Positions 41,484-48,609 of a stretch of 64,000 nucleotides of DNA are shown piece by piece. Position numbers and translations under genes: made by a program. How positions within the stretch are numbered: position 1 is the stretch's first letter; every line of letters starts with the position of its first letter. Below the pieces are notes generated by a model, which did not search any database, was not told where the DNA came from, and was given only the letters and a program-made list of their open reading frames with translations. Source of the stretch: Escherichia phage AV111; the sequence record OR352941.1. The stretch is one strand, 5' to 3'.

Positions 41484-41894
41484 CTACTTTTTCTTATGTT
41501 GGATATTCCAAGGCGGGTTGAACTTTTTGATAAAAAGTGGTTCTTCAAGGTCCATTGTTGCGATGGTCATTGAACCAAGTTCGTTGGTGACTGAAAGGTC
41601 AAAACATTGGCGGGCCCAGAATTCAACCTTTTTGCCTTGCATTAAGGCATCCAAAATCATAAGTGATTTTCTTGAATCTGAAGTCTGGTCTTTTCGATTT
41701 ATGGCTGTTCGATAATAGTTAATGCGTTTCTTTAAATTCTTGGTTTTACCAATATACACGAGTTCGTCATCTATAGCAATAGCATATATGACATTTTTCT
41801 TATTAGGGACATCAACTGTTTTAATTGTTGCATCTTCTAATAGCTCCAATTCTGTATATTTAATAAAGGAATATTCGGCGGCGATATCTTTCAT
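41484..41894 (-). CDS. denA: Endonuclease II (GIY-YIG family, host DNA degradation)
   Basis: 136 aa (T4 EndoII 136 aa); GIY-YIG-type motif VIYAI...VYIGKT; position between rnlA and nrdB. Confidence 0.85.
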   Translation of the reverse strand: MKDIAAEYSFIKYTELELLEDATIKTVDVPNKKNVIYAIAIDDELVYIGKTKNLKKRINYYRTAINRKDQTSDSRKSLMILDALMQGKKVEFWARQCFDLSVTNELGSMTIATMDLEEPLFIKKFNPPWNIQHKKK

Positions 41895-41920
41895 AATAAA
41901 GTGGGACCGAAGTCCCGTCC

Positions 41921-42430
41921 TTAGAAATATTTTTTGTATGAATTGATTACATTTTGGTCTACATCATTATCAATTTGTGCGACAAGATAAGAACTGATTT
42001 CAACTTCTTGTGGGGCTGCTTGAACCAAATCAGAGTTCAAATACTCACGAATCCATGGAATAGGATGACGAGTTGATACGTCTTTAAGAGGACATGGCAG
42101 ACCACAACTACGCATACGAGACACGGTAAGATAATCCACAAATTCACTTAGGATTTTAACATTTAGACCTGGAAGAGCACCATCTTTAAACAAGTGTTCA
42201 GCCCATTCTTTTTCTTGAGCGTTAACTTCCATGAAAATATCAACTGCTTCTTGTTCACACTCTTGAGCAATTTTGACCCATTCATCACCGTCTTCGCCAT
42301 CTTGTAAAGCACGAATAATATATTGAGTGCCCTTGAGGTGAAGCTGTTCATCACGAGCAATGAACTTCATAATCTTGGCATTACCTTCCATGATTTCCAT
42401 GTTCTTATGGAAGTTAAAGGTACCGTTATG
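41921..42430 (-). CDS. nrdB: Ribonucleotide reductase small subunit NrdB, 3' exon (approximate 5' boundary)
   Basis: Translation ...MEIMEGNAKI..FIARDE.LHL.GTQ...VSSYLVAQIDN corresponds to the C-terminal half of class Ia NrdB; upstream boundary estimated by alignment to E. coli NrdB. Confidence 0.8.
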   Translation of the reverse strand, partial: HNGTFNFHKNMEIMEGNAKIMKFIARDEQLHLKGTQYIIRALQDGEDGDEWVKIAQECEQEAVDIFMEVNAQEKEWAEHLFKDGALPGLNVKILSEFVDYLTVSRMRSCGLPCPLKDVSTRHPIPWIREYLNSDLVQAAPQEVEISSYLVAQIDNDVDQNVINSYKKYF

Positions 42431-43512
42431 TTCGATTGAGCTCGCTAATTCTCAACCCGTTCTCTTATGAACTGCTACATATTACTATGCAGACCAGACT
42501 ATATCACAATCCCGGAGGGATTCTCCCCATTTCGAGTCGCTTGACCCTACGTCCGAAGACTAGTCGTTGAACCTTGCTTTGCAATTGTCGCCGTGCCATC
42601 GTTTATATGTTGATGGTGATAAATCTTTCTTATCACAATATGGACAATTCAATTGAATTCTATTTGGATTTAATTTACATCTGTCATTATGTTTTAGATA
42701 AAATCCAGGACCTTTACCAATGTGACCACAGAAATCACATGTGATTTCTTTTTGTGCAGGATGGGTCCCGTTCTTAACCATTTCTAATGTTTTTGCTGAT
42801 GTTCTTTTCTTATGGTCTTCTGATAAGAAATGATGTGAACCGTCATTTACCCGTTTTGATTGAGTTTCTGACTGCATTTTACCACCGCAAAATACATGAG
42901 TACCTTCTTTTATAGCTGCAATATTACGTTCTTTGACTTTTGCAACATGCTCAGCTTGTTGAAAATTATGTATACCTAATGCAACTCTATTTAAATTAGA
43001 TTTACGTTGTATTTCACCACCTAAAAGATGAAATGTACCATTTTCTATCTTAGATTTAATAGAGGCAATATTTTTAGCTCGTACTTCAGGGATATTAAAA
43101 ATCTGGATTTCTCTAGATTTTGCGGCTTTAGAAGCTAATTCAGAAATTTCTTCAGGAGAATATTTCATTCTAAGCTTTATAGCATGACAAGCCTGGTAAT
43201 CTTTTTGAGCTAAATGTATATCATAATGTTCCTGTATAGAAAGGCACATCAAATTATCTAAATCATTATTTTCACGGTTACCGTCTTTATGATGGATTTC
43301 GTATGTTCTTCCATCAGAATCTTTAGGTATAGGTCCGTTAGCATCTATCCAAATTTTTCTATAGTTCAATTGTGCATCCTCTTAAAAGTATAATCATATT
43401 TATATTATACTAATTAAAGGTGCAAGCAAAACCTTGGCTGCTAGTTTTCCTATAAAGGACTTTCCAGCAATTAAAGGAGTTTTCGATAAACGTTACCGTT
43501 TAAAGGCGCATT
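42431..43512 (-). mobile_element. Probable group I intron in nrdB carrying an HNH homing endonuclease gene (boundaries approximate)
   Basis: About 1.1 kb separates two halves of a conserved NrdB at the FYVSFA / ELMEGN junction; ~145 and ~160 nt of noncoding sequence flank the endonuclease ORF, as in the T-even nrdB intron. Confidence 0.7.
42560..43369 (-). CDS. HNH homing endonuclease, I-TevIII-like (intron-encoded)
   Basis: 269 aa; HNH motif EIHHKDGNRENNDLDNLMCLSIQEHYDIH; C-terminal Cys-rich zinc-finger-like segments (CDFCGH...C, CPYCDKK...C); same length as I-TevIII. Confidence 0.8.
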   Translation of the reverse strand: MNYRKIWIDANGPIPKDSDGRTYEIHHKDGNRENNDLDNLMCLSIQEHYDIHLAQKDYQACHAIKLRMKYSPEEISELASKAAKSREIQIFNIPEVRAKNIASIKSKIENGTFHLLGGEIQRKSNLNRVALGIHNFQQAEHVAKVKERNIAAIKEGTHVFCGGKMQSETQSKRVNDGSHHFLSEDHKKRTSAKTLEMVKNGTHPAQKEITCDFCGHIGKGPGFYLKHNDRCKLNPNRIQLNCPYCDKKDLSPSTYKRWHGDNCKARFND

Positions 43513-44190
43513 TTACGCAAAAGATACATAAAAACGAATTGCTTCTAAGGCATTAATAACGTGCAAACAGAGGTAAAGAGATTTCATTAGCTCACGCTTC
43601 CAATATGTCTCATGCTCAATAGCATCTTCAATAACGTCTTCGTCTGCATTAATTTCTTTTTGGTATTCGATATCAGCTTTAGCGTTTTCCCAATAACGAG
43701 CTTTAACCAGAACATCATCATAATATCGTCCGATAGATTCGGCACGCTTCATAATAGCTTCATCTAATACAATCTCATCAAACACCTTCGATGGATCTGT
43801 ATAAAGATTTCGCATAATATGAGTATATGAACGAGAGTGAATAGTTTCACTGAAAGTCCATGTAGCAACCCATGTATCTAATGAAGGGTCTGAAAGCAAT
43901 GACATAAGTACCGCAGATGGTGCTCTACCTTGGATAGAATCTAATAATGATTGATACTTAAGGTTGTTGGTAAAGATGTCCTGTTGGAACTGTGGAAGCT
44001 TATTAAACTGGGCCGAATCCAACATCAAGTTTACTTCCTCGGGACGCCAAAAGAACGAGAGCTGCTTTTCGATAAGCTCTTCAAAAACTTTATGACGCTG
44101 AATATCATACCGTGCGAGGCCAAGACCAGAACCAAAGAACATCGGTTCATTCAAAACATCGACTTGTTGTGTGTTAAAAACTGTACTCAT
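43513..44190 (-). CDS. nrdB: Ribonucleotide reductase small subunit NrdB, 5' exon
   Basis: 225 aa ending ...LCLHVINALEAIRFYVSFA then stop (stop lies in the insert). Confidence 0.85.
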   Translation of the reverse strand: MSTVFNTQQVDVLNEPMFFGSGLGLARYDIQRHKVFEELIEKQLSFFWRPEEVNLMLDSAQFNKLPQFQQDIFTNNLKYQSLLDSIQGRAPSAVLMSLLSDPSLDTWVATWTFSETIHSRSYTHIMRNLYTDPSKVFDEIVLDEAIMKRAESIGRYYDDVLVKARYWENAKADIEYQKEINADEDVIEDAIEHETYWKRELMKSLYLCLHVINALEAIRFYVSFA

Positions 44191-44245
44191 TATATTTTCT
44201 CACCTAGTTATTAACTCATCCATGAGTAAATTATAATAAAAAGTC

Positions 44246-45235
44246 TTAAAGCTTACAAGCAGAACAATCTTCTGCTTTAGGTGTTTCTAATTCATAGTCG
44301 TCTGTACCAGACCCATCACGAGTGTTATGATAGTAGAGGTTTTTTCCGCCAAAGTACCAGAAGTAAAGCAGATCGTCAAGCATTACTGACATTGGCACTT
44401 TACCTTTCTCAAATACTGCAGGGTCATAGTAAGTATTAGCAGAAGCAGATTGGCACACCCATTTCAACATGATAGCAACTTGGGTCAAATAAGGTTTATT
44501 ACCTTTCTTAGCAAGTTTCCACGCGTAGTCGTAAAGACTCATGTTATGTTCTATATTAGGAACAACCTGACGGAAGTTGCCTTCTTTAGATTCTTTAATA
44601 CTTACTGGACCACGTGGTGGCTCAATCCCGTTTGTAGAGTTTGATACTTGACTGCTTGACTCACAAGGCATGAGTGCAGACAACGTTGAGTTACGAATTC
44701 CATGTTCTTTGAGTTCAGCTCGAAGTTCTTCCCAGTCACAGACGTAGTTCGGGGCTGCGATTTGGTCAATCTTTTTATTGTACCAGTCGATAGGTAATTC
44801 GCCTCTAGACCATTTAGTGTCTGAATAATACTCGCAACATCCTTTTTCTTTGGCGAGTTTGATTGATGCTTTGATAAGGCCATATTGCAATCTCTCAAAC
44901 AATTCATGAGTCAAATCGTTAGCGTCTTCATATGAAGCAAAGTTAGAAGCTAACCATGCGGCATAGTTCGTCACACCAACACCGAGGTTTCGACGCTTTT
45001 TAGCTTTTAAAGCTTCTGGAACCGGATAATCTTGATAGTCTAACAGGTTATCAAGTGCACGTACTTGTACTTCAGCAAGTTCATTAATTTTATCTTGGTC
45101 TTGCCAATCAAATTTATCTAATACAAAAGCAGATAATGTGCAAAGGCCCACTTCACCTTTGTTTTCAATAACTTGTATTGTTGTATACTCATCATCTTCG
45201 TAAAATTCATCTACAAATTCATAATCAATATTCAT
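44246..45235 (-). CDS. nrdA: Ribonucleotide reductase large subunit NrdA, C-terminal piece (NrdA-b-like)
   Basis: 329 aa; GEVGLCTLSAF...ALDNLLDYQDYPV...NSTLSALMP.ESSSQ.SN.TNGIEPPRG...C-terminal CxxC tail, collinear with E. coli NrdA residues ~455-761; own ATG overlaps the stop of the upstream HNH gene. Confidence 0.88.
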   Translation of the reverse strand: MNIDYEFVDEFYEDDEYTTIQVIENKGEVGLCTLSAFVLDKFDWQDQDKINELAEVQVRALDNLLDYQDYPVPEALKAKKRRNLGVGVTNYAAWLASNFASYEDANDLTHELFERLQYGLIKASIKLAKEKGCCEYYSDTKWSRGELPIDWYNKKIDQIAAPNYVCDWEELRAELKEHGIRNSTLSALMPCESSSQVSNSTNGIEPPRGPVSIKESKEGNFRQVVPNIEHNMSLYDYAWKLAKKGNKPYLTQVAIMLKWVCQSASANTYYDPAVFEKGKVPMSVMLDDLLYFWYFGGKNLYYHNTRDGSGTDDYELETPKAEDCSACKL

Positions 45236-45935
45236 TTAATTCTTCTACCTTTTTTCGAGATATTCCTAGAGCTTTAGATGCTCGATGTATTGATTGATAT
45301 TCTATACCGTTTATTTTTACAGCAATTAAGTTATGGGGTTTTAATCCCTTTGGATGAGGTTTACTGACGTATTCTTGATTATCGTTTTCAGAGATATTAT
45401 CAAGCTTTCGACACTTAAAGCCTTTATGTTGAGACCTTTTGCCTTTGCATACGGCCGACATTGCCGAAGCATTGAGTGAATGTAGTTCGCAAAATTCTCT
45501 TAGGCCTTTATGGATTTCTTCATGACCGTCCGGGAAAGTAAATACCCAAGTTGTTTGAAGTTTTTCTCTATGCTCGTCAGTTACCGGAATACCTTTGTTC
45601 CAAGCTGGTTTGCCTTTATTATTTTCAGATACAGAAATAGCCAATTTTCTTCTAAGCCACCCATGGCGTTTATTGGTGTTCTTTCGTTCAATATTATCTT
45701 CAGAATAAACACACATCATATTAGCGGCAAATACCAATTTATGATTATCTGGATATATCTTTACTAATAATTGATGAGCTATGTAATGCTCTTCGGGTGT
45801 CAAATCTACCAGGTTTTCCTTTGTATCAGAACCACCAATACACAGAGGTATAATATGGTGTGATTCGGTATAGCAATCTAATTTTCTGTTCTTAGCTTTA
45901 GAAATAAGGTTATTGTAAATTTTAGAATAATCCAT
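45225..45935 (-). CDS. HNH homing endonuclease (MobE-like) inserted within nrdA
   Basis: 236 aa; HNH motif ESHHIIPLCIGGSDTKENLVDLTPEEHYIAH; C-terminal basic DNA-binding-like region; lies between the two nrdA pieces. Confidence 0.85.
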   Translation of the reverse strand: MDYSKIYNNLISKAKNRKLDCYTESHHIIPLCIGGSDTKENLVDLTPEEHYIAHQLLVKIYPDNHKLVFAANMMCVYSEDNIERKNTNKRHGWLRRKLAISVSENNKGKPAWNKGIPVTDEHREKLQTTWVFTFPDGHEEIHKGLREFCELHSLNASAMSAVCKGKRSQHKGFKCRKLDNISENDNQEYVSKPHPKGLKPHNLIAVKINGIEYQSIHRASKALGISRKKVEELNEY

Positions 45936-45980
45936 AACTTTTCCTCTTGTTATGGATTATTTATTAACGGCCTGTGTACT
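45225..45980 (-). mobile_element. Homing-endonuclease insertion splitting nrdA (free-standing HEG or ORF-containing intron)
   Basis: NrdA homology stops after the SNLCCEIAIPTNDVN active-site segment and resumes at GEVGLCTLSAF in a separate ORF; the intervening 0.75 kb is almost entirely the HNH ORF. Confidence 0.75.
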
Positions 45981-47405
45981 TTATTTGCTTTGAATTATAC
46001 CGCCAGGATTAGCTTCATAAAACTTAGCTACATCCGACTTCTTAATTTTGATTAAACGGGTTTGTTGGCTATTCACATCATTAGTTGGAATAGCGATTTC
46101 ACAACATAAGTTACTTTGACGAATTGGAGCTTTTTCACGAATAAATGGAGTGTAGTTATTCGTGTTATCAACAAACTGCGGATAAATTCGAGCAGTGCCA
46201 GAACGTTCAGTCATGAACAATTCAAAGAGTTCTAGTGCTTTGATTCTTTTCTTTCTGATTGTTGGGTCTTTTTCAGCTTTCTCATAAAGCTCATGGAATT
46301 TATCTTGATCTTCAAAGAACGAGTAGTATAGTTCGCCTGACATTTCGTGAGGGCTAAATAAAGTAATATAATCATTTTTACCAAGGCGTTCCATCATAAG
46401 GTCATTAATCTGAATTCCGTAGTCCATATGTCGAATACGGTTTTCATCTACGCCTTTGTTATTTTTCAGAACTAATAGGTTCTCTACTTCTAAGTGCCAC
46501 ATTGGATAATACGCTGTAGCAGCACCACCACGAATACCACCTTGAGAACAAGATTTTACTGCAGTTTGGAAATGTTTCCAGAATGGAATAACACCCGTAT
46601 GTCGAACTTCACCCATACCGATCTTAGAACCTTCTGCACGAAGCATACCAACGTTGATACCGATACCAGCTCGTTTAGAAATATATTCAATAATTGATGC
46701 TGAAGTTTTGTTAATAGATTTTAACGAATCACCGGCTTCAATAACTACACAACTAGAGAACTGGCGAGTCGGAGTACGAGCACCTGCCATAATTGGAGTA
46801 GGCAATGAAACTTGATGAGTAGAAACGGCATCATAAAAACGAATAATATGTTTCAAACGGTTATGAGTTTCGTCTTGGTGTAAGGCCATACCAATAGCCA
46901 TGATAGCAAACTGGGGAGTTTCATAAATCTTCCCAGTTGTTTTATCTTTAACTAGATATTTTTCTTTAAGCTGCATAGCACCAGCATAAGTCAGGTCAAA
47001 GTCTCGGTCATGTTTAATCTGTGAATCGAGATAAATGATTTCTTCTGCTGAATATTGAGACAACAGCTCAGGGTCATATTTGCCTTCATTAACACAGTAA
47101 GAAATATGGTCGATAAAAGCAGGCGGTTCAAACTGCCCGTATACATCTTTACGAAGTGCAAACATTAGCCCTTTGGCGGCGACATACTGATAATCAGGTT
47201 CTTCGACAGAAATCAAGTTAGCTGCAACTTTAATACAAATCTTCTGAATATCTTTGGTGCTCATCCCATCGACAAGATGGGTCTTAATTTCTTCGTACAA
47301 TTCATATGGGTCAATTTGTGTTCCTTCACATTGCCAAGTTAAGACTTTAATAATTTTCTGTGCATCAAAATTTTGGGATACACCACTGCTCTTATTTACT
47401 TGCAT
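45981..47405 (-). CDS. nrdA: Ribonucleotide reductase large subunit NrdA, N-terminal piece (NrdA-a-like)
   Basis: 474 aa; ATP-cone N-terminus, catalytic SNLCCEI motif near the C-terminus, then 29 non-homologous residues and stop. Confidence 0.88.
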   Translation of the reverse strand: MQVNKSSGVSQNFDAQKIIKVLTWQCEGTQIDPYELYEEIKTHLVDGMSTKDIQKICIKVAANLISVEEPDYQYVAAKGLMFALRKDVYGQFEPPAFIDHISYCVNEGKYDPELLSQYSAEEIIYLDSQIKHDRDFDLTYAGAMQLKEKYLVKDKTTGKIYETPQFAIMAIGMALHQDETHNRLKHIIRFYDAVSTHQVSLPTPIMAGARTPTRQFSSCVVIEAGDSLKSINKTSASIIEYISKRAGIGINVGMLRAEGSKIGMGEVRHTGVIPFWKHFQTAVKSCSQGGIRGGAATAYYPMWHLEVENLLVLKNNKGVDENRIRHMDYGIQINDLMMERLGKNDYITLFSPHEMSGELYYSFFEDQDKFHELYEKAEKDPTIRKKRIKALELFELFMTERSGTARIYPQFVDNTNNYTPFIREKAPIRQSNLCCEIAIPTNDVNSQQTRLIKIKKSDVAKFYEANPGGIIQSK

Positions 47406-47492
47406 ATATTCCTCAGTATAGGTTGATAGACATTACTCCAAACGGGATAGTATTTATCCCGTTAATTTATTATACACTTTTAAACTGAAGCG

Positions 47493-47747
47493 TTAATTAT
47501 CCTCAGCAATAATTTCTTCGTATTCTTTAGGTGTCAAGACTGTGATATCGAAATAAACCAACGGTTCTTTTTCCATACCGTAACCACCACAGAATTCACG
47601 ATATTCATAAATTCGTTCATGTGAATAACAAATGAATCGTTCACCTTTAACTGTGATTTCACTATTCGGTGAAGGGATATCCAGTTCGGTAGGATTTTTC
47701 ATTTCAAAAATTGTGGTGCCATATGAATTAATAAAACGTAAAATCAT
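47493..47747 (-). CDS. Hypothetical protein
   Basis: 84-aa ORF between nrdA and td. Confidence 0.5.
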   Translation of the reverse strand: MILRFINSYGTTIFEMKNPTELDIPSPNSEITVKGERFICYSHERIYEYREFCGGYGMEKEPLVYFDITVLTPKEYEEIIAEDN

Positions 47748-47748
47748 T

Positions 47749-48609
47749 TTATACCGCCATTTTAGCTTTGATAGCTGGATGAGATTCGTAATTTTTAAGA
47801 ACGAAATCAGAATGTGTCATCGTTCCAGTAACCCAGTCCATTTGGATTTTTGTAGGCCAATTCTCAAAATTACTAGGCCAATTAATTTCAAGAGAACATA
47901 ACTCTTTAGGTTCACGACGAAGAACTTCTTTGCATTGTTCTACATGATTGCTGTAGATATGCGTGTTGCCGCCTGAGAACACTAAATCACCTGGAATAAG
48001 GTTACACATCTTCGCTACAATATGCGTTAAGGCAGCGTACGAGGCGATGTTGAACGGCAGGCCCAAGAAAACATCTACACTGCGTTGATACCATTGTAAA
48101 TCAAGATGTCCATTACGCACATTAAATTGATAGAACATATGACAAGGAGGAAGAGCCATTTGGTCAATTTCGGCTGGGTTCCATGCAGAAACTATTTGAC
48201 GACGATCATTAGGAAGAGCTTTAATACGGTCGATAGTTTTGACCAATTGGTCTACACCACCAAAATCACGCCATTGCTTACCATAAATAGGACCAAGTTC
48301 GCCGCTATGATATCCAAGGTCTTTTGCCTGATTTTCATAGTTGTCGTCCCAAATAGTTTTACCTTCAATTAGACTGCCATGAGTACGAATACGCAAATCA
48401 TTAACATTGGTAGAACCAGACATGAACCACAGTAACTCGGCAATACAAGCTTTCCATGCTAATTTCTTAGTTGTTACTGCAGGGAATCCTTTAGTCAGAT
48501 CCCATCGTAATTTAGTTCCGAACAGAGCAATAGTGCCGGTACCTGTACGGTCGTCTGTTTCGTAGCCATTTTCTAAGATATCTTTAATCAGGTATTGGTA
48601 TTGTTTCAT
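47749..48609 (-). CDS. td: Thymidylate synthase (intronless)
   Basis: 286 aa uninterrupted; TS motifs (LPPCH.F.QF, DLGPIYG); same length as spliced T4 TS. Confidence 0.93.
   Translation of the reverse strand: MKQYQYLIKDILENGYETDDRTGTGTIALFGTKLRWDLTKGFPAVTTKKLAWKACIAELLWFMSGSTNVNDLRIRTHGSLIEGKTIWDDNYENQAKDLGYHSGELGPIYGKQWRDFGGVDQLVKTIDRIKALPNDRRQIVSAWNPAEIDQMALPPCHMFYQFNVRNGHLDLQWYQRSVDVFLGLPFNIASYAALTHIVAKMCNLIPGDLVFSGGNTHIYSNHVEQCKEVLRREPKELCSLEINWPSNFENWPTKIQMDWVTGTMTHSDFVLKNYESHPAIKAKMAV

Follow-up and report, generated by a model that had tools for sequence, protein, structure and literature searches.

In the genome of Escherichia phage AV111 (sequence record OR352941.1), nrdA, which encodes the ribonucleotide reductase (RNR) large subunit, is divided into two open reading frames (ORFs) by a gene for an HNH homing endonuclease. 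We analysed a 64,000-nt stretch of this record (the window), to whose full length all coordinates refer. Between 44246 and 47405 it contains three intact ORFs, nrdA-a, the endonuclease gene and nrdA-b, all on the minus strand (Table 1). An earlier note on this DNA had described the same ORFs at the same coordinates, as well as the short spacer ahead of the endonuclease ATG, and we find both as described. The nrdA-a frame stops at a TAA (45981–45983). The endonuclease ORF is out of frame, has a stop codon upstream and a ribosome-binding site of its own, and the nrdA-b ATG (45235) lies in another frame within its 3' end, giving an overlap of 11 nt. The note had further counted 29 extra residues at the C terminus of NrdA-a and a 23-residue leader on NrdA-b. 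The extra sequences are indeed there, but we count 28 residues after NDVNS, and 29 only if the serine is included, while the leader comprises 22–26 residues depending on whether the element-encoded IENKGEVGL is counted. The gene order td-nrdA-nrdB-denA is of the T-even coliphage type, with a gap of 55 nt between nrdA-b and nrdB that holds no mobE, and the region is closest to the Mosigvirus genomes JM17 (96%), JK45 (98%) and ZQ3 (96%).

Table 1. Features of the split nrdA locus, in window coordinates
Feature	Position	Strand	Remarks
nrdA-a	45981..47405	-	474 aa ORF
mobE-type (MobE_split) HNH homing endonuclease gene	45225..45935	-	236 aa, free-standing ORF
nrdA-b	44246..45235	-	329 aa ORF
nrdA-a core, residues 1-446	46068..47405	-	ATP-cone, all-alpha domain, first half of RNR barrel
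NrdA-a C-terminal tail QQTRLIKIKKSDVAKFYEANPGGIIQSK + stop codon, element-encoded	45981..46067	-	28 aa
Spacer, nrdA-a stop to mobE ATG	45936..45980	-	45 nt
NrdA-b N-terminal tail MNIDYEFVDEFYEDDEYTTIQVIENK, element-encoded	45158..45235	-	26 aa
nrdA-b core, residues 27-329 + stop	44246..45157	-	second half of barrel
Mobile cassette (~930 nt)	45143..46070	-	tail-a codons, spacer, mobE, tail-b codons, short nrdA-like right end

The break in nrdA falls within the catalytic barrel. The Pfam RNR barrel profile is divided between the two products, with positions 1–221 on NrdA-a and 219–523 on NrdA-b, and NrdA-a additionally matches the ATP-cone and all-alpha domains. When aligned to E. coli R1, residues 3–447 of NrdA-a correspond to R1 7–455 and residues 23–323 of NrdA-b to R1 453–751. 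These alignments therefore place Cys219 and Cys434, the equivalents of E. coli C225 and C439, on NrdA-a together with Asn432 and Glu436 (E441), and place Cys32 (C462), the YY pair and the cysteines of a C-terminal CxxC motif (CSAC) on NrdA-b. Thus the active-site cysteines would reside on separate polypeptides, as the earlier note had proposed. The insertion site itself corresponds to the loop that joins the barrel strands bearing the C439/E441 and C462 equivalents.

The exact limits of the insertion emerged from comparison with the uninterrupted nrdA of phage APCEc01, whose flanks are 98.8% identical to those of the window. The insertion measures 916 nt and replaces 12 nt, displacing four native codons (G-P-D-A); near the insertion region, insert-free nrdA (APCEc01 or T4) reads ...AATGATGTGAATGGTCCTGATGCTGAAATTGGTTTATGC.... 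The end of the NrdA-b tail, IENKGEVGL, resembles native NrdA (NDENGEIAL in E. coli), and the element therefore carries its own copy of the few displaced codons. The GEVGL codons (45143–45157), which are the first five of the nrdA-b core, retain element-type nucleotides. Searches recovered the split arrangement in at least 32 phage records at the DNA level and in 34 at the protein level, or ~27 distinct carrier phages once RefSeq/GenBank duplicates are removed. The carriers are Escherichia, Shigella, Salmonella and Yersinia phages of the genera Mosigvirus and Tequatrovirus, and in most of their records a homing endonuclease is annotated between two genes labelled 'ribonucleotide reductase alpha'; the record of phage e11/2 names it MobE. 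Because the same three intact ORFs recur across these records, the split is not a sequencing artefact, an explanation that the earlier note had kept in view.

Comparison with the Tequatrovirus phage HY01 revealed a single mismatch over 45144–46082, amid flanking nrdA exons that share 65–85% identity (75-nt bins) and have a synonymous divergence (dS) of ~1.7. The dS of mobE between the two is 0. The steps in identity fall within ~12 nt of the insertion boundaries, so the co-conversion tracts are very short. A near-identical ~930-nt cassette within flanking nrdA that is saturated at synonymous sites is indirect evidence of recent homing between genera (Mosigvirus-like and Tequatrovirus). Among the carriers, both nrdA halves are under strong purifying selection, with ratios of nonsynonymous to synonymous divergence (dN/dS) of 0.005–0.13, and so is mobE, with values of 0.11–0.26.

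The endonuclease has an N-terminal HNH motif, an I-HmuI NUMOD-like domain at residues 135–173 and, as a weak match, an I-TevI-like DNA-binding region at its C terminus. Its sequence agrees with the HY01 protein throughout (100% identity) and with that of ZQ3 at 99.6%. Following this coliphage group, the next-best full-length match in the phage collection is MobE of Aeromonas phage Aeh1 (48% identity over 229 of 236 aa, E 3e-61), the protein with which the earlier note had suggested it be compared. A scan of IMG/VR with a MobE alignment gave Aeh1 as the sole full-length relative; the wider protein database supplied intermediates in the form of eight metagenomic full-length homologues with 51–67% identity. 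All eight sit inside a split nrdA (nrdA-a 474–485 aa, nrdA-b 324–329 aa), on contigs with the T4-like neighbours td, nrdB and rnlA. The family comparisons below cover 11 diverged members.

Three side observations concern the endonuclease. In e11/2, F26 and 236Ecol005PP a central block of mobE (~45370–45590, which covers the linker leading up to and into the NUMOD-like domain) has no more than 67–74% identity to the window, while the remaining cassette is 93–100% identical; F2 holds part of this variant block, and the divergent segment points to mosaic recombination among cassette alleles. In many T-even phages (records H137–H160, for example PSD2002, G8 and HY03), more distant full-length homologues (34–36% identity) lie beside the helicase gene uvsW, and these have been named MobY1 (bioRxiv 10.1101/2022.08.31.505936). 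The C-terminal DNA-binding architecture is therefore shared beyond the nrdA-splitting lineage. Lastly, an e11/2-type MobE_split protein is filed under Bacillus cereus in NCBI (WP_100771429.1), which is almost certainly coliphage contamination of the B. cereus assembly.

The likeness to Aeh1 extends across the whole locus. The gene products of the Aeh1 locus measure 473, 237 and 323 aa compared to 474, 236 and 329 aa in the window, the spacer is 46 rather than 45 nt and the mobE/nrdA-b overlap 14 rather than 11 nt. The insertion site is the same, with Cys219, Cys431 and Cys31 of Aeh1 corresponding to Cys219, Cys434 and Cys32 here. The endonucleases are homologous over their full length, the basic a-tail and acidic b-tail each have a homologous counterpart, and a hairpin and a late-promoter element, both of them predictions in the window, lie upstream of mobE in the two loci. 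There are also differences. Aeh1 is a Cinqassovirus with a MobE only 48% identical to that of the Mosigvirus/Tequatrovirus coliphages, its hairpin covers the Shine-Dalgarno sequence whereas the window hairpin covers the AUG, and its nrdA-nrdB genes lie near nrdD instead of in the td-nrdA-nrdB-denA context. Furthermore, the biochemistry comes from Aeh1, and the window system is described from its sequence. In Aeh1, both polypeptides were purified with their tails and the enzyme was fully active; the insertion is reported not to be a self-splicing intron and the tails persist in the mature proteins (PMC3045599). Judged by these alignments, the insert in the window and the mobE cassette of Aeh1 are homologous and not merely analogous.

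The two tails of the window are oppositely charged. The NrdA-a tail has an isoelectric point (pI) of 10.0 and a net charge of +3.8, the NrdA-b tail a pI of 4.05 and a net charge of -8.5. Across all 11 members the a-tail is basic (+3.4 to +6.4), with the motif L[IV]K[IV][KR]K[SKC]D[VI]xxF, and the b-tail is acidic (-7.5 to -13.5), with an invariant core EDxEYTT (YEDDEYTT in the window). In the tail codons of the family, the proportion of synonymous differences (pS) is 0.44–0.81 and that of nonsynonymous differences (pN) 0.08–0.19, and all indels are in-frame. The resulting pN/pS of 0.17–0.34, at near-saturated synonymous sites, argues that the tails are translated and constrained. The tails can also be aligned directly to those of Aeh1. 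The b-tails align as MNIDYEFVDEFYEDDEYTTIQV with M-IEHERIYEVYEDEEYTTVEI, sharing 11 of the first 19 window-tail positions, and the a-tails as RLIKIKKSDVAKF with MLFKVKKSEVDKF, with a common K-KKS-V-KF pattern. The alignments of the a- and b-tails score 42 and 64, with p at most 0.0005 for each tail in shuffle tests.

The Aeh1 tails, with pI values of 10.4 (a-tail) and 3.8 (b-tail), are essential for activity (Crona et al. 2010, PMC3045599). Their removal lowered activity ~2000-fold through loss of both (aa/ab)2 complex formation and tight NrdB binding, although the aa/ab heterodimer still assembled (PMC3045599). At that time the tails had no database match (Crona et al., PMC3045599); by the alignments above, the tails of the window and its relatives are the matches that were missing in 2010.

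The spacer between nrdA-a and mobE carries a late-promoter-like AATAAATA at 45958–45965 and an AAGAGGA Shine-Dalgarno sequence. A predicted, perfect 13-bp hairpin spans 45926–45961 (-13.1 kcal/mol); its 5' arm lies in the spacer and begins inside the AATAAATA box, and its 3' arm contains the mobE AUG and codons 2–4. An ATAAATA core is found upstream of mobE in all 11 members, three of which have the full T4 late-promoter box TATAAATA. When the hairpin was placed on the alignment of the 11 sequences, 88.5% of cells were paired, compared to 34–43% with the partner slid. Four pairs show compensatory changes, such as codon 2 GAY/AAY covarying with TCC/TTC in the 5' arm, and none of 500 shuffles reached the covariation score. 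In Aeh1, the hairpin and late promoter confine MobE translation to late transcripts (PMC2988022). By the same logic, which has been reported for Aeh1 mobE and I-TevI, the hairpin would pair the mobE AUG of long transcripts with the sequence overlapping the late-promoter core. A late transcript, beginning a few nucleotides past the late-promoter box, would lack the 5' arm of the hairpin and would be the main source of MobE translation.

A consensus promoter and terminator scan of 44100–47600 gave counts at chance level, with no terminator within the cassette. In nearly all members, a GTACAYA / TGTACATA motif directly follows the nrdA-a stop on its 3' side (45966–45980 in the window; the spacers of L093–L100). 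We considered that it might be an autorepressor operator mimicking an nrdA target at the Leu-Cys-Thr codons, by analogy to the I-TevI operator; the best 11-nt matches were like those of shuffles (p 0.09–0.97), and this idea was rejected. The motif might serve as an operator or an RNase E site, or take part in an alternative pairing.

We read the insert as a free-standing, Aeh1-type MobE_split cassette in a Mosigvirus-like T-even nrdA whose products would be reassembled at the protein level, and we give this interpretation a probability of roughly 0.88. It agrees with the two-polypeptide NrdA favoured by the earlier note. There is no intron match in the region, the endonuclease is homologous to Aeh1 MobE, the tails are homologous as well and the codons of the tails change in the manner of coding sequence. 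During mixed infections, MobE would cut an intact nrdA allele near the insertion site, and recombinational repair would copy the whole cassette together with its tails, leaving the flanks almost free of co-conversion. The damage to nrdA would then be repaired at the protein level, without RNA or protein splicing. The oppositely charged tails would be required for dimerisation and for NrdB binding, as measured for Aeh1, and after reassembly the C225–C462 redox pair would span two chains.

Several points weigh against this interpretation. That splicing is absent, that the polypeptides are separate, that they have RNR activity and need their tails, and that MobE cleaves at its presumed target site are all points carried over from Aeh1 or deduced from sequence. 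The purifying selection seen on the two halves could come in part from recombination with uninterrupted alleles rather than from selection after insertion. The late-promoter box AATAAATA of the window matches at seven of eight positions, and the pairing statistics for the hairpin are inflated because its 3' arm is coding and one of the aligned members supplied the structure. Finally, nrdA is non-essential for T4 under laboratory conditions, so that intact ORFs speak less strongly for function here than they would in an essential gene.

The other explanations differ in how, or whether, a functional NrdA is recovered. A group I or other self-splicing intron carrying the HNH ORF could restore a continuous nrdA mRNA. 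Group I introns with homing endonuclease ORFs are known in T-even nrdB, td and nrdD (PMC2988022), the window's own nrdB has one, and since intron ORFs may extend into core sequence, the tight spacing does not by itself exclude an intron. However, the search for group I introns (RF00028) that the earlier note had proposed gave no match in 45150–46100, even in a permissive Rfam scan of 41500–48000 at E at most 10, while the nrdB intron was detected in the same scan as a positive control (42475–42715, 33.8 bits, E 7e-6). In addition, non-coding sequence amounts to only 45 nt, and the 28 and 26 codons on either side continue the exon frames and are conserved at the protein level, at the low pN/pS given above. 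The homologous insertion in Aeh1 is reported not to self-splice, and the two Aeh1 proteins kept their tails on purification (PMC3045599). An intron is therefore extremely improbable in our view. We hold it just as hard to credit that the tails are split-intein halves which join NrdA-a to NrdA-b by protein trans-splicing, as in metagenomic 'fractured genes'. Real split inteins with a free-standing endonuclease do fracture nrdA ~12 residues upstream in loci L032 and L035 (PMC2677866), a degenerate N-intein-like tail occurs in locus L034 at the same nrdA site as in the window, and a degenerate-intein origin of the Aeh1 tails was raised by Crona et al. (PMC3045599). However, at 28 and 26 aa the tails are much shorter than any intein half and miss the hallmarks of split inteins, with an a-tail that starts with Gln rather than Cys or Ser and a b-tail that ends ...IENK before Gly and has no His-Asn. 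No Pfam Hint or intein domain matched the window proteins of the split nrdA locus. Local alignment with shuffles found no significant similarity of the window and Aeh1 tails to the L032/L035 split-intein halves (p 0.13–0.86), a test in which the L034 a-tail was positive (p 0.0005–0.002). Furthermore, the tails of Aeh1 persist in the mature proteins (PMC3045599).

It could also be that the insertion inactivated nrdA, leaving the ORFs as a young pseudogene pair in a phage that relies on host RNR or on anaerobic NrdD. With one mismatch to HY01, the cassette is recent in the window lineage and decay might not yet show; moreover, T4 can grow without nrdA under many laboratory conditions. In contrast, both halves are intact in 34 of 34 phage records and in all eight diverged metagenomic members, and the dN/dS values among carriers are low, as given above. 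Conservation of the tails in relatives whose MobE is only 48–67% identical is hard to reconcile with useless products, and the split enzyme of Aeh1 is fully active (PMC3045599). We consider a dead gene very unlikely, if less so than an intron or an intein. A bolder reading would see in the two charged tails, one basic and one acidic, an autonomous and portable module for heterodimerisation that moves with the endonuclease, possibly as a split-intein remnant that keeps the halves associated without splicing. Our sequence tests detected no intein signal in the tails, which are too short for a decisive outcome, and we regard this idea as speculative and rather unlikely. If it were true, MobE_split would join introns and inteins as a third general class of mobile element that repairs itself, one now seen to move actively from one coliphage genus to another, in a setting open to dissection by T4 genetics.

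Under the MobE_split interpretation, an enzyme broken between its active-site cysteines and yet fully active without splicing would be a striking way for a selfish element to become harmless, although full activity of a fragmented NrdA has been shown biochemically in Aeh1 only. The same element, tails included, is present, and appears to be recently mobile, in ordinary, genetically tractable E. coli T-even phages, and the eleven diverged members define conserved tail residues and regulatory features that offer concrete targets for mutagenesis. This is no new principle: the element is of an established kind, and its coliphage copies had already been annotated and noted in a preprint. The Aeh1 nrdA-a/mobE/nrdA-b arrangement was reportedly described by Friedrich et al. 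in PNAS in 2007. Given the split annotations in GenBank, the Aeh1 papers (2007, 2010), a 2010 review and the 2022 preprint, the arrangement is therefore already known. That preprint states that a variant MobE inserts in nrdA in Aeh1 and several others, with conserved N- and C-terminal extensions (NTE and CTE), and its File S4 lists MobE_split proteins from Aeh1, F2, vB_EcoM-ZQ3, HY01 and 'B. cereus' (WP_100771429) (bioRxiv 10.1101/2022.08.31.505936). The window endonuclease is identical to the HY01 protein in that list. However, the preprint mentions the element in passing, as unpublished, without cassette boundaries, tail statistics, metagenomic members or hairpin covariation. What is added here is the exact limits of the cassette, support of a statistical and evolutionary kind for its tails and hairpin, the eight metagenomic members and the evidence for recent inter-genus transfer.

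Other mobile elements of T-even phages resemble the cassette in part. In the T4 MobA element, the gene split by a related HNH Mob endonuclease is that of an essential enzyme, topoisomerase (39/60), with an in-frame C-terminal extension on ORF1 and an N-terminal extension on ORF2. A short element-encoded stretch ('homR') replaces deleted host codons there, the role that IENKGEVGL plays in the window. In contrast to MobA, the window cassette lies in another target gene and has no translational bypass cassette, and the tails of the two systems have no sequence similarity. Canonical T4 MobE shares with the window protein an N-terminal HNH region (46% identity over 127 aa) and a tie to the RNR operon. 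However, it is a 141-aa protein encoded between nrdA and nrdB, the position that the earlier note correctly gave for T4, with neither tails nor a split gene, and its target is nrdB (PMC2988022). We rejected an identification of the window gene as canonical mobE, since it lies inside nrdA and encodes 236 aa of which only the N-terminal 127 can be aligned.

A break near the active-site cysteines, with a free-standing endonuclease gene between the halves, also occurs in nrdA genes fractured by split inteins (Dassa et al. 2009, PMC2677866). These genes differ in having genuine N- and C-intein halves (CVTG..., ...VHN before C) that presumably trans-splice, while the window tails are without every intein hallmark. 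We observed such genes in L032 and in L035 (also L036–L038, L041 and L044), where nrdA is fractured between SNLC and CEI by genuine split inteins (CVTGETYV...; ...NGILVHN), in a layout that matches the 'fractured genes' described by Dassa et al. (2009; PMC2677866). Between the halves lies a GIY-YIG gene in L035 (693–1397) and an HNH gene in L032 (487–1422), and after nrdA comes a canonical MobE-like gene, at 2501. In L034 (IMGVR_UViG_3300042400_000402, 144–2444), nrdA is split in the same loop as in the window by a GIY-YIG-like endonuclease gene. Its a-tail (FKLSLDDGTEVLIPGQHKVLLSNGDMKKVRELTEDDDITDLLL, 43 aa), which lacks Cys1, is similar to the C-terminal part of real N-inteins (the p values quoted above), and its b-leader has no His-Asn; these tails look like a degenerate split intein that has been kept. 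The metagenomic relative L094 (ENA ERZ14207129 NODE_16, 707–2551) combines a MobE_split cassette with an intein in the same nrdA-a. The intein (PT-HINT / Intein_splicing matches; ...FANDILVHN before CLEIAIPT) occupies the position of the catalytic Cys439, 10 residues upstream, and the two different mobile elements lie no more than 12 codons apart.

Directly downstream of nrdA-b, nrdB (41921–44190, minus strand) is interrupted by the group I intron noted above. Exon 1 ends near 43513 and exon 2 covers ~41921–42470. The intron carries a full-length 269-aa I-TevIII-like HNH ORF (42560–43369), as in RB3 and unlike the truncated version in T4; in ZQ3, the closest carrier, nrdB is uninterrupted. With an RNA intron in nrdB beside the split nrdA, a single operon thus appears to cope with an endonuclease gene in both ways, by splicing of the RNA in nrdB and, putatively, by reassembly of the protein in nrdA.

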